Sequence record: NZ_CP044080.1
Length of the DNA: 64,000 nt
Strand: one strand, 5' to 3'
DNA from: a plasmid
The notes under the pieces were generated by a model, which saw only the letters and a list, made by a program, of their open reading frames with translations, was not told where the DNA came from and searched no databases. Made by a program: the position numbers and the translations under genes. Of the stretch, positions 39,328 to 43,835 are shown piece by piece (the first letter of the stretch is position 1; every line of letters starts with the position of its first letter).

Positions 39328-39530
39328 GCCCTGAGGCCCCGGCCCGACCTCTCGGGCATGTGAGACGCGCCGGACTTTCAACTTCCGCCCATTCCCCGCA
39401 TTCTGCCAGGCTCTTAACCGATTATCCCCCGAGCGTTGGACGTCGGGTGAACGAATTTGTTAACTTGCGGCGGCCCGCCGTCCCCGGACATTAGGGCCCC
39501 TGACCACCACGCCCGATTCGAAGGAAACCC

Positions 39531-40943
39531 ATGCTAGAGCGCCTGAAGGCCATGTTCCGGTCGGACGATGTGATCTCGACCCTGTCGGTTTTCCCCGAGA
39601 TCGACGAGGAAAAGATCCAGCGCGAGCTGGCGCTTGAATCCCAGGGCCGCGACCGGGGGGCCCGCAACCAGCCCGAGCCTTCCGCGCAGGAGCCCGACCA
39701 TATCGAGACCGCGATCATCACCCGGATCGAGGCGCTGCGCCGCACCGGGCTGGAGAACTACGAACAGTATCGCCGCGTCTACAACGAACGCCTGGCCCGC
39801 GCGGGCGACGCCAAGAAAGAGGTCGAGATCGTCGCGGGCCGCGCGCGCAACGAATTCGGCGCCTCGGTCCAGGGATGGAAGACGACGATGACGCCGACCA
39901 TCGAGCGGCTGAACGAAACCTATACCTATCGCCGCCATTTCCGCGACCGGCACCGGCTGATCCGCCCCGCCCGCCAGTTCGAGGGCTGGGTCAAGTTCGC
40001 CGCGCTGGCGGTCATCTACATCGTCATCGAATCGGCGATGAACAGCTTCATGTTCTCGCGCGGGAACGAATCCGGGCTGCTGGGCGGGCTGCTGACCGCC
40101 TTCATCTTTTCGGCGCTGAACGTTCTGGTCAGCATCCTGATGGGCTATTTCGCGCGATATGTGAACCACACCAACCTGCTGAAAAAGCTGTTCGGCCTGC
40201 TGGTGATCCTGGCCTGGATCGGGTTCGCGGTCGCGCTGAACCTGATGATTGCCCATTTCCGCGACCTGATCGACGCCGGCGCGACATGGGAGGCCGCGTT
40301 GCGCCAGGCGGTCCCGAACCTGACCGCCGGCCCCGTGGCGCTGACCGGCATGGACAGCTGGATCCTGGTGGGGATCGGCGGCTTCATCTCGACCCTCGCC
40401 TTTCTCAAGGGCTGGACCGCCGAGGACCCGTTCCCCGGCTATTCCCAAGTCGAAGGCGAATTGGCCCGCGCCCGCCGCCGGCACGAGATCGACATGACCC
40501 GCGCGCTGGACGAGCTGACCGACCGCCGCGACGAAGCGATCGAGGAGCTGCGCGACGCCGATCGCCAGGTCCGCGACGGCATCACCGAGGCCATCGATGC
40601 GCTGTTCGGCCAAAGTGCCCTGAACGCGCATCTGGAAACCTTCCTGGAACAGTGTGACCTGAAGTTGGCGCATCTGCTGGCGGTCTATCGCGACGCGAAC
40701 CGCAATGCCCGGACCGAACCTGCGCCCCCCAGCTTTGCCCGCGTCCACCGCTTTGCCGCCTTCACCCCCGCCCGGATCGAGGACGGGCGCAAGACCAATG
40801 CCGAGGCCGAGGCCGCCAAGGTCACCGAGACCGTCGATGCCGCCATCGCCGACATCTTTGCGCAGTTCGAAAACGCCCGCCGCGAGTTTCGCCTGCCCGA
40901 AGAAATCCAGCGCGGCGACCACCTGGCGGCGGGGCGGGCCTGA
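39531..40943 (+). CDS. uncharacterised 4-TM membrane protein with N- and C-terminal cytoplasmic coiled-coil domains (gene 1 of the MotAB-like operon)
   Basis: 470 aa. Charged N-terminal ~150 aa; four hydrophobic helices (VKFAALAVIYIVIESAMNSFMF, LLGGLLTAFIFSALNVLVSILMGYF, LFGLLVILAWIGFAVALNLMIAHF, WILVGIGGFISTLAFLKGW); Arg/Glu/Asp-rich heptad-like C-terminus. Good SD GAAGGAAA. I recognise no known catalytic motif. Confidence 0.7.
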   Translation: MLERLKAMFRSDDVISTLSVFPEIDEEKIQRELALESQGRDRGARNQPEPSAQEPDHIETAIITRIEALRRTGLENYEQYRRVYNERLARAGDAKKEVEIVAGRARNEFGASVQGWKTTMTPTIERLNETYTYRRHFRDRHRLIRPARQFEGWVKFAALAVIYIVIESAMNSFMFSRGNESGLLGGLLTAFIFSALNVLVSILMGYFARYVNHTNLLKKLFGLLVILAWIGFAVALNLMIAHFRDLIDAGATWEAALRQAVPNLTAGPVALTGMDSWILVGIGGFISTLAFLKGWTAEDPFPGYSQVEGELARARRRHEIDMTRALDELTDRRDEAIEELRDADRQVRDGITEAIDALFGQSALNAHLETFLEQCDLKLAHLLAVYRDANRNARTEPAPPSFARVHRFAAFTPARIEDGRKTNAEAEAAKVTETVDAAIADIFAQFENARREFRLPEEIQRGDHLAAGRA

Positions 40944-41776
40944 TGGCGGCGCGGTCCAGACGCCGCCGCCACAGCCGCGGCCGGGGCCATGGCGGCGGCC
41001 TCAAGACCGCGGGCATCGTGATCCTGGCCGTGCTGCTGTCGGCCGGCATGGGCGCCGCCGCCTGGTGGCACAGCCGCCAGCAGCGCGCCGCGGCCATCGA
41101 CCAGACCACGCTTTGCCCCACGGCCACCGGCCCCGTCGGCATGACGGCGATCCTGCTGGACCTGACCGACGCCCTGTCGCCCGCGCAGAAATCCCAGCTT
41201 CTGGGCTATCTGGAACAAGAGATCGACGATGCGCCGCAGGGAACCCAGTTTACCCTGGGGGTGGTCAGCGCCGACCCGGACCAATGGGGCGCGACGCCGC
41301 CGCTCTGCAAGCCGCAGGACGTCAGCACCGCCAGCGCCCTGACCCAGAACCCGGGCCTGATCGCAAAGCGCTATCGCGACCGCTTCCTGCAGCCCCTGCA
41401 GGACAACATCGCCCGGATGACGGCGGCCAGCGGCGCCAAGCAGTCCCCCATCATGGAATCCCTGCAGGCGCTGATCGCGGACACGCCGGGCTTTGTCACC
41501 TATGACGGGCCGCGCCGGGTCCTGCTGGTGTCGGACCTGCTGCAACACAGCGACGCGCTCAGCTTCTATCGCGGGAACGACTGGCAAAGCTTCGTGAAAT
41601 CCCCCGCCTATCAGCGGCTGGGGGCGACGCTCGGCGATGCCGAGATCCGCATCTTCCAAGTGCCGCGCCCGCTGGAGGGCGTCGACGACCCCGCCGTGCT
41701 GGAGGATTTCTGGGCGCGCTATTTCGACGTCCAGGGCGCGCATCTGCCGGTGCTGAAACGCCTGGGGGACCTTTAG
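40943..41776 (+). CDS. membrane-anchored vWA-like alpha/beta domain protein (gene 2 of the MotAB-like operon)
   Basis: Arg-rich N-terminus and one TM helix (IVILAVLLSAGMGAAAWW). The soluble domain has an alternating strand-helix pattern with AILLDLTDALS (degenerate DxSxS MIDAS position) and RVLLVSDLLQHSD (vWA beta4 TDG-like). TGATG overlap with gene 1. Confidence 0.65.
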   Translation: MAARSRRRRHSRGRGHGGGLKTAGIVILAVLLSAGMGAAAWWHSRQQRAAAIDQTTLCPTATGPVGMTAILLDLTDALSPAQKSQLLGYLEQEIDDAPQGTQFTLGVVSADPDQWGATPPLCKPQDVSTASALTQNPGLIAKRYRDRFLQPLQDNIARMTAASGAKQSPIMESLQALIADTPGFVTYDGPRRVLLVSDLLQHSDALSFYRGNDWQSFVKSPAYQRLGATLGDAEIRIFQVPRPLEGVDDPAVLEDFWARYFDVQGAHLPVLKRLGDL

Positions 41777-42802
41777 GTGGCGCGCGGCGATCCCGACCGG
41801 CTGCATGGCCGGGGCCCCCGGGCGATGCTGGACAGCCTGCCGCTGGCCCTGGCCTTTCTGGTGGGCACCATCGGCGGCGTGGCGCTGAAACTGGCCGAGG
41901 CGCCGGCGCTGCTGACCGCGGGCTTTGCCGCGGCCGTGCTGGTCGCCTATGCGCTGTTCAGCTATGCCGCGACCCGGTTGCGGCTGGACACGGAAACCAT
42001 CGGCGACAACTGCTATTACCTCGGCTTCCTGTTCACGCTGACCAGCCTGGCCGTGACGCTGTATTTCGTGGTCGAGGCCGCGCCGGAGACGCGCGCCGAC
42101 CTGATCCCGCAGGTGATCTCGGGCTTCGGGGTGGCGCTATCGTCCACCATCGTGGGGGTGTTCCTGCGGGTGCTGATGATGCAGCTGCGCGTCGATCTGG
42201 ACCTGCGCGAACGCCGCACGAGGATCGAGCTGGACGAGGCCGCCCGGCGCTTCCGGTCCGAACTGGGCGTCAGCCTGGGCCGGGTCAAGAACTTCTCGAC
42301 CGAAAGCCTGCAACACGCCTCCGAGCGCGAGGACAGGATGCGCGAGGCGATGGACCGGCTGATGGCCCAGATGCAGGCCGAACTGCTGAAATCGGCCGCC
42401 GACTTCGGCCCGGCGCTGCGCGACGCCATGCGCGCCCAGACCGATCAGGTCATGGCCGACGTGACCGAGGCGGTGCGCGAAAGCTCGACCGCCGCCTGCG
42501 AGGCGATCCGCCAGGCCATGACCGAACTGGCGCAGGTCGCGCAGGCCTTCAGCCGCGACCAGGCCGGGGCGGCGCAGGCCGTGGCGCAAAGCGTGGACAG
42601 CCTGAAAGCCAGCGCCGAGGCCCTGGCCCTGGGCACGGAACAAAGCCTTGCCCGGCTGAACGCCGCCGCGACCGGCGGGGCGGACTGGGCCGAAAGCCTC
42701 GGCGCCCGGATCGAGGCCGAGACCGAGGCTCTGGGCGCCGCCCTGTCGAACGCCGCCCGCCGCCTGGACCAGGTCGCGCCCCAAGGCTCGGGCGATGCCT
42801 AG
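41777..42802 (+). CDS. MotA/TolQ/ExbB-family proton-channel protein with a ~190-aa C-terminal coiled-coil tail (gene 3)
   Basis: TM helices including YYLGFLFTLTSLAVTLYFVV and ISGFGVALSSTIVGVFLRVLMM, resembling the conserved ExbB/MotA TM3-TM4 (LGLLGTVxGM / ALxTTxxGL). Ala/Glu/Arg-rich coiled-coil tail. GTG start directly after the gene 2 stop (TAGGTG), preceded by GGGGGA. Confidence 0.7.
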   Translation: MARGDPDRLHGRGPRAMLDSLPLALAFLVGTIGGVALKLAEAPALLTAGFAAAVLVAYALFSYAATRLRLDTETIGDNCYYLGFLFTLTSLAVTLYFVVEAAPETRADLIPQVISGFGVALSSTIVGVFLRVLMMQLRVDLDLRERRTRIELDEAARRFRSELGVSLGRVKNFSTESLQHASEREDRMREAMDRLMAQMQAELLKSAADFGPALRDAMRAQTDQVMADVTEAVRESSTAACEAIRQAMTELAQVAQAFSRDQAGAAQAVAQSVDSLKASAEALALGTEQSLARLNAAATGGADWAESLGARIEAETEALGAALSNAARRLDQVAPQGSGDA

Positions 42803-43835
42803 GATCGCGCCCCGCCCCGGCGGCAGCCGCGACTACAAGCGCGGCGCGATCATGGGCCTGACCGTGGCCGAGGCCTTCATCCTGCTGGCCTTCTGCCTGC
42901 TTCTGCTGTTCACCTGGTGGCAGGTGGAAACCGAGAAACGCTCGATCACCGTGGCCGAACGCATCGGCGAACTGACCGAGCAGCAAAAGCAGGATCTGGT
43001 CGCCGGCCTGTCCGACGGCACCTTCGACCTGGCCCGCACGCTGCGCGAGGCGGGCATCGTCGGCGGAGAACGGGCCTTGGCCGAAACCAGCCAATACAGC
43101 CGCTTCATGCGCGAGGAAGATCTGAAGCGCCTGATGCAGGCCACGGTGGAGCTGTCCCCCGACACCCGCCTGACCCTGGCCGACGCGGTCGAGGTCACGC
43201 CCGAAGCCGAGCTGCGCGATGCCTTGCGGAAACTGGCCGCGCGCGAGGACAGCGTCGAACAGGCCAGCCGCCGCCTGGCCGAGGCGGCCGCGACCCAGGA
43301 CCGCGCCGTCGCCATGCTGGACCGCGCCCTTGGCCAGGACATCCGCGCGGCCGGCGGGCAGATCGACGGGAACGGCACGATCACCCTGCCCCAGAACGTC
43401 CTGTTCGACCCCGGCAGCGACCGCATTCGCAACCTGCCCTTCCTGCGCGACTTCTGCACCGCCTGGATCGGCACGCTGCGCGATTCGGGACTGGACATCG
43501 CGAACCTCAAGATCGAGGGCCATGCCTCGAGCGAGGGGCGGCCGGGCGAGACGCCCGAGCAGGCCTATCTGTCGAACCTGGACCTGTCGCAGCGCCGTGC
43601 GCAGAACGCGCTGACGACCTGCCTGAACGGCATCCGCGACCCCCGGACGCTGGCCTGGGCGCGCGAACACCTGTCGGCGGCGGGCTATTCCTCGGCCCGG
43701 CCGGTGGTGCAGGCCGACGGCAGCGAGGACCGCGAAAAATCCCGCCGCGTGATGTTTGCCATGGACGTGGACCGCGAGGCGCTGATCGACGGCATCCGCG
43801 AGGACCTGACAAGCACCCCGCCCGCCTTGCCCTAA
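42795..43835 (+). CDS. MotB/OmpA-family peptidoglycan-binding protein (gene 4)
   Basis: N-terminal TM LTVAEAFILLAFCLLLLFTWW, a long linker, and a C-terminal OmpA-like domain (ITLPQNVLFDPGSDRIRN…LKIEGHASSEG…NLDLSQRRAQNALTTCL…AAGYSSARPV). 8-nt overlap with gene 3. Confidence 0.75.
   Translation: MPRIAPRPGGSRDYKRGAIMGLTVAEAFILLAFCLLLLFTWWQVETEKRSITVAERIGELTEQQKQDLVAGLSDGTFDLARTLREAGIVGGERALAETSQYSRFMREEDLKRLMQATVELSPDTRLTLADAVEVTPEAELRDALRKLAAREDSVEQASRRLAEAAATQDRAVAMLDRALGQDIRAAGGQIDGNGTITLPQNVLFDPGSDRIRNLPFLRDFCTAWIGTLRDSGLDIANLKIEGHASSEGRPGETPEQAYLSNLDLSQRRAQNALTTCLNGIRDPRTLAWAREHLSAAGYSSARPVVQADGSEDREKSRRVMFAMDVDREALIDGIREDLTSTPPALP

Follow-up and report, generated by a model that had tools for sequence, protein, structure and literature searches.

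Zorya systems have been published in three types, each of which pairs a ZorAB stator with soluble cytoplasmic partners that are recruited by the ZorA tail (PMC11946911, PMC11890865). In the current model of types I and II, this tail brings soluble cytoplasmic nucleases to the phage entry site. The transmembrane (TM) Asp of the B subunit (ZorB Asp26) is universally conserved and mechanistically essential, and the ZorB peptidoglycan-binding domain also bears disulfides (PMC11946911). Beside TolQR-like 5:2 motors, vWA proteins tethered to the inner membrane have been proposed to act as 'force transducers' (PMC12204202). Here we describe a cassette of four genes, g1 to g4, in a 64,000-nucleotide stretch of a Paracoccus yeei megaplasmid (sequence record NZ_CP044080.1), which we call the window. 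We are highly confident that the cassette joins a divergent ZorAB pair, g3 and g4, to two new obligate partners, g1 and g2, in one conserved unit, and we present it as a candidate fourth Zorya architecture, that is, a candidate for a new type of Zorya. In the literature searched, nothing described an architecture in which ZorAB is combined with a vWA protein and a four-TM protein, or with a periplasmic nuclease. The features of the cassette are as follows.

Leader, 39328..39530, plus strand: 203 bp from the stop codon of a GntR-family gene (39327) to the ATG of g1.
g1, 39531..40943, plus strand: 470 aa, orphan inner-membrane protein.
g1 transmembrane core, 39987..40415, plus strand: residues 153-295, which bear the invariant polar residues.
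g2, 40943..41776, plus strand: 277 aa, single-pass membrane protein with a vWA-fold domain.
g3, 41777..42802, plus strand: 341 aa, GTG start, ZorA-like channel subunit.
g4, 42795..43835, plus strand: 346 aa, ZorB-like anchor.

The g1/g2 junction is cTGATGg, the g2/g3 junction is TAGGTG, and g3 and g4 overlap by 8 nt (ATGCCTAG). A sequence-only reading of the window, made before any database search, had described four tightly coupled open reading frames (ORFs) behind a leader of about 200 bp, with the partner genes upstream of the stator genes; the coordinates, all three junctions and the gene order were confirmed. In the leader (39328-39530), neither a sigma-70 consensus promoter nor a terminator was found, and no Rfam family matched at E<=1. 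A genome scan matched the window at 100% identity to the P. yeei megaplasmid NZ_CP038055.1 (pYEE46822P13), and in three further P. yeei plasmids the cassette occurs at 97.6-98.6% identity with the same gene coordinates. It was present in 4 of the 4 P. yeei plasmids found, with all four ORFs intact in four strains. RefSeq annotates the same genes on the near-identical P. yeei plasmid pYEE1 as three hypothetical proteins and an OmpA family protein.

The four genes form a unit far beyond P. yeei. One genome for each species (185,579 species genomes) was scanned with a degenerate pattern; about 200 had a g1 relative, and 80 loci were kept. By tblastn, g1-g2-g3-g4 were colinear on one strand in about 58 of these loci, and the unit recurs in at least 57 species genomes. 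When each ORF of at least 90 aa was clustered all-against-all, only four families recurred across the 80 loci (in 76, 74, 62 and 57 loci). No conserved fifth gene was found in these loci, the other recurrent clusters being antisense shadows or genus-level synteny, and ZorC, D, E, F and G were all absent as a conserved gene. The recurrence of four genes with order and strand preserved is far beyond chance, and the conservation of the unit, on which the sequence-only reading had staked its proposal, was borne out. The hosts were mostly Rhodobacterales but also included Rhodospirillales, Hyphomonadaceae and a few Gammaproteobacteria (Vreelandella, Halioglobus). No g1 relative was found in 2.9 million viral contigs; the cassette is therefore not phage cargo.

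Two groups of loci departed from the common arrangement. In Hyphomonas and other Hyphomonadaceae, a divergent g1-g2 pair was present without adjacent ZorAB-like genes, beside TonB-dependent receptor and FecCD genes and downstream of two paralogous ORFs of about 315 aa. Because g1-g2 occurs alone in Hyphomonas, it is a separable sub-module. In a metagenome-assembled genome (MAG) of Geminicoccaceae, the gene after the g3 homologue encodes 385 aa that match neither OmpA nor any other Pfam family, and a Cas10/Cmr2 gene comes next; the 385-aa product may be an alternative form of the B subunit or anchor.

The two downstream genes, g3 and g4, encode homologues of ZorA and ZorB that are closest to type II. 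The protein encoded by g4 matched the PADLOC hidden Markov models (HMMs) of ZorB2 (E 5.4e-25) and ZorB1 (3.3e-24), the NCBIfam ZorB2 model at 1.6e-17, although far under its equivalog cut-off (64 vs 400 bits), and Pfam OmpA (E 1.3e-5). Its best match in the PDB was 8vvi_A, which is the type II ZorB of Sulfuricurvum kujiense (PMC11890865). A profile of 57 g4 homologues aligned with E. coli ZorB2 in hhalign at 99.8% and E 2e-29. When 72,556 plasmids were searched by tblastn, the nearest relatives outside the family were E. coli ZorB2, which has 30% identity to g4, and a protein of a compact type II Zorya carried by a plasmid of Psychrobacter. The Psychrobacter sp. plasmid in question, pA17BP1, is mobilizable and 7,461 bp long, and about one third of it is taken up by the type-II-like Zorya (342-2979). 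Its genes, for a 363-aa ZorA-like protein, a 223-aa OmpA/ZorB protein and an HNH protein, have no annotation beyond hypothetical, OmpA family and HNH.

The g4 protein has a basic N-terminus, a TM helix, a helical linker of about 130 aa and an OmpA-like peptidoglycan-binding domain (residues ~195-330). Residues G17, M20, G21, T23, A25, E26 and C221 were invariant in the family and C276 was nearly so. The stator acidic residue is Glu26 (codon 42870-42872), which was found in 57 of 57 homologues; its equivalence to the ZorB Asp comes from a manual N-terminal alignment (SMSDLMAGLMM / PLADLMTGLMM vs TVAEAFILLAF). For MotB, ExbD, TolR and ZorB alike, Asp is given as the universal residue here. An acidic residue is thus kept at position 26, and the chemistry may be conserved.

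For g3, the sequence-only reading had proposed a MotA/ExbB/TolQ-like channel with a coiled-coil tail. The helical tail and the kinship to ZorA held, but Pfam MotA_ExbB did not recognise the window protein, which had no significant Pfam match at all, and it matched just 1 of 28 g3 family members. The assignment as ZorA rests on the PADLOC ZorA HMMs for this reason: the window g3 matched ZorA2 at E 1.5e-6, and among the 28 family members 27 matched ZorA2 (best 5.7e-11), 14 matched ZorA3 and 9 matched ZorA1. The protein has four hydrophobic segments (residues ~22-135) within a conserved core (residues ~20-185) that contains IGDNCYYLGFLFTLTSL and ISGFGVALSSTIVGVFLRV. Two of its helices correspond to the channel-lining pair of E. 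coli ZorA2, with LGFLFTLTSL aligned to LGILGTFIGI and ISGFGVALSSTIVGVF to LLGGLKTAFITSIVGMF. The tail is about 200 aa long in the window copy and is helical, variable in length and repetitive in some members, and g3 as a whole ranged from 308 to 656 aa across loci. Profile matches of the g3 family to PDB entries, ZorA chains included, were discarded because they were driven by the coiled-coil tail and came alongside apolipoproteins.

We compared the cassette with type II Zorya as represented by ZorA2-ZorB2-ZorE of the E. coli plasmid pQnrS1_005237 and by the S. kujiense system (8VVI). As in these systems, the A gene lies directly before the B gene and is translationally coupled to it, the homology of g4 to ZorB2 extends across the peptidoglycan-binding domain, and the g3 family matches the ZorA2 HMM. 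The short tail of g3 is comparable to that of the 378-aa S. kujiense ZorA (PMC11890865). In contrast, there is no ZorE/HNH gene, and the two membrane proteins g1 and g2 are encoded upstream where type II has a soluble effector downstream. In addition, g3 has one hydrophobic segment more than ZorA2 (four vs three), located at its N-terminus, the helical linker of g4 is absent from the 235-aa ZorB2, the g4 family has an invariant Glu in place of the essential Asp, and the nuclease that many relatives carry is predicted to lie on the periplasmic end of ZorB instead of in the cytoplasm.

With types I and III, the cassette shares a ZorAB-type core, since the g3 family matches ZorA1 and ZorA3 and g4 matches ZorB1, but none of the ZorC, D, F and G models recognises g1 or g2, nor do DUF3348 and DUF2894, and both g1 and g2 are integral membrane proteins. 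The locus therefore has the features of ZorA and ZorB without the B-subunit Asp and without the downstream partner genes (C+D, E or F+G) that define the known types. No cognate partner genes of flagellar MotAB, Tol-Pal or Ton systems were present in the flanks, and the best HMM matches were to Zor, not to Mot, Tol or Exb. These results agree with the sequence-only reading, which had recognised a Zorya-like stator pair outside any flagellar, Tol-Pal or Ton locus and had excluded ZorC/ZorD and ZorE as its partners.

The partner protein g1 is an orphan. Neither g1 nor g2 gave a significant match in Pfam, NCBIfam, PADLOC or PHROGs, so that no known system claimed them in these profile libraries. 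An AlphaFold2 model of g1 (mean predicted local distance difference test score, pLDDT, 85) was all-helical, with an 84-residue helix (57-140) before TM helices at 153-176, 183-211, 216-248 and 274-295 and two long C-terminal helices at 304-393 and 419-469 (90 and 50 residues). Its four TM helices and long flanking helices, like the single TM helix and vWA fold of g2 and the OmpA-type anchor of g4, had been anticipated from sequence and are retained. A Foldseek search of the PDB with the g1 model found generic coiled coils only, none at E<1e-3. Invariant polar residues stand within the TM helices (E167, N171, N197 and N237), and the motif AHFRD (241-245) is also invariant. All 119 clusters of g1 homologues are named 'hypothetical'. 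An exhaustive profile search of 1.84 billion proteins found 3,320 family representatives (at 50% identity) at E<=1e-3 and 1,564 at E<=1e-30, and the divergent representatives had no informative name. PADLOC applied to 22 family members gave matches of the coiled-coil type (LeoBC) and two ZorA matches at only ~1e-3.

The second TM helix of g1 (residues ~183-210, 40077-40160; GLLGGLLTAFIFS) resembles a channel helix of E. coli ZorA2 (LLGGLKTAFITS), and the segment GLLGGLLTAFIFSALNV has 50% identity to ZorA2 VLLGGLKTAFITSIVGM over 28 aa. The motif score of this helix against ZorA2 TM3 exceeded shuffles only marginally (24.0, compared with a shuffle maximum of 20.4); the power of the test is low, as it gave the genuine g3 a score of 21.3 vs 21.0. 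It may be that g1 and g2 are a second, cryptic stator-like A/B pair, in which case the operon would be a tandem A-B-A-B double motor. Across loci, the length of the g3 tail did not co-vary with that of the g1 helix (rho -0.11). The length of the g1 C-terminal segment correlated with that of the g4 linker (rho 0.60), a value obtained with kinship ignored and not used as evidence. Separately, g1 was considered as a paralogue of g3, and this was rejected because the TM-only profile-profile score equalled that of reversed controls.

The other partner, g2, consists of an Arg-rich N-terminus, one TM helix (residues ~19-49) and, directly after it, a domain (residues ~57-277) with the Rossmann-like alpha/beta fold of vWA proteins, although the Pfam VWA HMM did not match. 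The putative metal-ion-dependent adhesion site (MIDAS) is modified: D73-x-T75-D76 is invariant after strand beta-1, the third Ser is replaced by Ala or Pro, and S168 (in S168PIME) and D198 (in S197D198) are invariant at the expected later positions. The invariant C58 and C122 suggest a periplasmic disulfide. The extreme C-terminus, LGDL-COOH (41762-41773), was invariant in 34 of 34 aligned homologues, which suggests a C-terminal docking peptide. The TM segment itself is poorly conserved, with no invariant residue and no conserved His, Ser or Asp. Like the proposed force transducers (PMC12204202), g2 is a single-pass protein with a predicted periplasmic vWA domain and is encoded next to a motor gene of the MotA/TolQ superfamily. 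It differs from them in the absence of an SHLS/His motif, a transpore Asp and a long disordered linker, and the neighbouring motor is of the ZorAB kind, includes a B subunit of its own and has the four-TM g1 as an obligatory extra component.

The basic N-termini and the positive-inside rule, together with the invariant Cys pairs of g2 and g4 and the homology to ZorB, give the predicted topology of the complex. The vWA domain of g2 and the linker and peptidoglycan-binding domain of g4 would be periplasmic, and the N-termini of g2 and g4, the long N- and C-terminal helices of g1 and the tail of g3 would be cytoplasmic.

Many relatives of g4 carry a nuclease. A Pfam scan of the 57 g4 homologues found OmpA in 50, SNase in 16 and GmrSD_C in 6, and local HMMs detected fused SNase in 17, fused GmrSD_C in 6 and adjacent stand-alone SNase ORFs in five loci (3 strong and 2 weak). 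A fused nuclease of either fold, SNase or GmrSD_C/His-Me, was thus present in about 40% of relatives, and a fused or adjacent one in about half. The 588-aa g4 homologue of Oceanicola, for example, has an SNase domain. In every g4 homologue examined, the nuclease was C-terminal to the OmpA domain; because it sits after the peptidoglycan-binding domain, it is predicted to be periplasmic. In P. rhizosphaerae, a separate SNase gene follows g4, and in its close relative P. aerius SNase is fused to g4, which makes the two a natural fission/fusion pair.

In a tree of g1, one sub-clade has GmrSD_C in place of SNase, close relatives switch between the fused and the split form, and nuclease-less forms are scattered and are dominant in the Jannaschia clade. 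The presence of two unrelated nuclease folds at the same site, with repeated gain, loss and fission, fits the modular pattern of conflict-system effectors. The clearest effector-like element of the family is the nuclease fused to g4 and not g1 or g2. This modifies the sequence-only reading, which had ascribed a non-canonical effector module to the partner genes; these are indeed membrane proteins, but the effector-like part was seen on the ZorB side of relatives.

The window copy has no such domain. Local HMMs for SNase and GmrSD found no match anywhere in the 64-kb window, and g4 ends about 30 aa past the OmpA domain. P. yeei lies inside an SNase-bearing clade of the g1 tree, next to P. litorisediminis and P. 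methylarcula, sister taxa in which SNase is fused to g4. Because it nests among SNase-fused sisters, the window copy has most parsimoniously lost its nuclease. Compared with P. yeei CCUG 32053, the ratio of nonsynonymous to synonymous polymorphism (pN/pS) was 0.12 over the whole cassette: 0.06 for g1, 0.06 for g2, 0.12 for g3 and 0.44 for g4, the last from just 9 substitutions. Purifying selection maintains the cassette in P. yeei, and it is not decaying.

The surroundings of the cassette differed between P. yeei and other genomes. In P. yeei, it is flanked by RND (resistance-nodulation-division) efflux, TetR and GntR genes upstream and by DeoR and sugar ABC (ATP-binding cassette) transporter genes downstream, in agreement with the earlier placement between efflux and sugar genes. 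Elsewhere, one cassette lies between IS110 and IS21 with SNIPE/T5orf172, another has a phage-type tyrosine integrase immediately upstream and Cas2 downstream, a third has AbiEii and an AAA ATPase nearby, and a fourth is followed by Cas10. The genes pheS-pheT and rplT-rpmI normally form one conserved cluster; in a Rhodobacter MAG, the cassette and a DDE transposase of an insertion sequence (IS) stand inserted between them, a clean case of the cassette inserting as mobile DNA. Among the 127 nearest flanking ORFs of 38 loci were rve (four), Phage_integrase (three) and several DDE, IS66 and IS110 transposases, together with unambiguous defence genes, among them those of BREX and type I restriction-modification: BrxL (E=0), PglZ, a type I methyltransferase with its S subunit, Cas9 and HEC-05. 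These neighbours, counted without a background control, are no more than suggestive of mobile accessory DNA in defence surroundings. A defence-island context was seen in several other genomes but not in P. yeei.

A further observation concerns the start of the window. Positions 1-2000 have 55% GC compared with ~68% elsewhere in the window. In P. yeei plasmids, this segment carries sulfotransferase and GH99-like genes and was found at a different position or in a different orientation in two strains, and it probably represents surface-polysaccharide DNA gained by horizontal transfer.

In our preferred reading, the cassette is a self-contained, horizontally mobile four-gene membrane system built on a divergent type-II-like stator, and its most likely role would be in envelope-level defence against incoming foreign DNA, a proposal whose chances we judge to be about even. 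The homology to ZorAB, the conserved four-gene unit, the nucleases of relatives, the mobile and defence neighbours, the predicted periplasmic domains and the maintenance of the cassette in P. yeei speak for it. By homology with ZorAB, five g3 subunits would surround two g4 TM helices, and rotation of g3 would start once the OmpA-like domain of g4 engages peptidoglycan. Ion flow via g4 Glu26 and the polar channel residues of g3 (T87/T89 and S123/T124) would turn g3 together with its tail. More speculatively, a g1-g2 complex would serve as the obligate motor partner in place of the soluble ZorC/D/E, and the motor would be activated when the envelope is perturbed by a DNA-delivery machine. The system might then stop or misdirect DNA on its way across the inner membrane, and in copies that have a tethered periplasmic nuclease, this enzyme might degrade the exposed DNA. 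The chromosome would be safe from this nuclease because it is in a different compartment. As the P. yeei copy appears to have lost its nuclease, it would rely on the output of g1/g2, such as an entry block or depolarisation of the membrane, or else on a nuclease provided in trans.

Phage superinfection exclusion offers a conceptual analogy. In phage-encoded systems such as T4 Imm/Sp, proteins of the inner membrane interfere with DNA entry, and endonuclease I degrades misrouted DNA in the periplasm. The likeness is confined to this combination of entry interference and periplasmic degradation; there is no sequence or structural kinship, and the cassette is cellular and has an ion-driven stator. 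In its strongest form, our proposal would make the family the first Zorya-type machine with a periplasmic output, in which a nuclease-bearing motor and a vWA/four-TM complex intercept periplasmic DNA, which in Rhodobacterales could come from gene transfer agents (GTA) or transformation as well as from phage. We hold this specific version to be decidedly doubtful.

Several observations weigh against a defensive role. About half of the family, the whole Jannaschia clade included, has no recognisable nuclease, and the P. yeei cassette itself carries none. On its way through the periplasm, phage DNA normally has the protection of the injection channel, and access of a nuclease to it is hard to explain. 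The assignment of g3 as ZorA falls below the curated cut-offs of both NCBIfam (15 vs 190 bits) and Pfam. The Hyphomonas loci with g1-g2 only may point to a motor-independent role of this pair. In P. yeei, the cassette is on a chromid-like plasmid, with efflux and sugar-catabolism genes around it, and not in a defence island; the synteny in Jannaschia looks like that of a housekeeping locus (ScpB and CheR/CheB neighbours); and the enrichment of defence and mobile neighbours is a raw count with no background control.

The alternative that survives best, as a minor but real possibility, is a non-immune envelope machine in which a stator driven by the proton motive force is coupled through g2 and g1 to a housekeeping or adaptive task, such as sensing of envelope stress, tethering of peptidoglycan or the outer membrane, or scavenging of extracellular or periplasmic DNA for nutrients, by analogy with the proposed vWA force transducers. 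The metabolic and efflux context in P. yeei and the stability of the cassette across strains are consistent with this, as is the genus-level synteny with housekeeping genes in Jannaschia and Hyphomonas. SNase-type nucleases are, moreover, commonly secreted nutrient-scavenging enzymes. Tethered vWA proteins have also been proposed as force transducers beside 5:2 motors (PMC12204202), but g2 has none of their hallmarks (SHLS/His motif, transpore Asp, long linker). The sporadic distribution (about 200 of 185,579 species genomes), the many loci with IS, integrase or defence genes nearby, and the swap between SNase and GmrSD_C, which is typical of conflict systems, all argue against a non-immune machine, and the nearest relatives of g3 and g4 are Zorya and not Tol, Ton or Mot.

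We consider it quite improbable that the system is a gatekeeper for periplasmic DNA that limits or regulates uptake in Rhodobacterales by intercepting GTA cargo or transforming DNA awaiting ComEC. The predicted position of the nuclease on the periplasmic side of the ZorB-like anchor would suit such a function, and the concentration of the family in Rhodobacterales and other Alphaproteobacteria and its absence from viral contigs point in the same direction. However, this support is purely circumstantial, the cassette also occurs in the Gammaproteobacteria Vreelandella and Halioglobus, and half of the systems have no nuclease with which to intercept DNA.

It is very improbable that an SNase-bearing system has left no more than an effector-less remnant in P. 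yeei, with a secondary function or with non-functional immunity. The placement of P. yeei in a clade with fused or adjacent SNase and beside SNase-fused sisters, the end of g4 about 30 aa past OmpA, the lack of SNase and GmrSD in the 64-kb window and the weakest constraint on g4 (pN/pS 0.44) are what a remnant would show. In contrast, all four ORFs are intact in four strains, g1-g3 have ratios of 0.06-0.12, and the g4 ratio derives from only 9 substitutions. Nuclease-less versions are, in addition, probably functional because they are common and phylogenetically scattered.

Lastly, a device for interbacterial antagonism or export, with the variable C-terminal nuclease as a released toxin and the stator as its energy source, is exceedingly improbable: the variable nucleases of relatives on a conserved N-terminal scaffold do resemble polymorphic toxins and SiiAB-type stators do energise secretion (PMC12204202), but no conserved downstream ORF that could encode immunity and no conserved fifth gene accompanies the cassette, no secretion-system genes are present in the flanks, half of the systems, the window copy among them, have no toxin domain, and the nuclease is attached to an inner-membrane protein that binds peptidoglycan.

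If the cassette is a defence system, Zorya would gain a fourth architecture in which membrane partners replace the soluble ones, and self and non-self would be told apart purely by compartment, as the nuclease would never meet the chromosome. The SNase-fused, GmrSD-fused, split and nuclease-less forms would then provide a natural comparison set for the output of the motor. The replacement of Asp by Glu in the stator could matter for ion coupling and for the mechanics of 5:2 motors whatever the function of the system. If true, our reading would also give a role to the large g1 family, which is unannotated and has about 3,300 representatives at 50% identity, as well as to a family of membrane-tethered vWA proteins.

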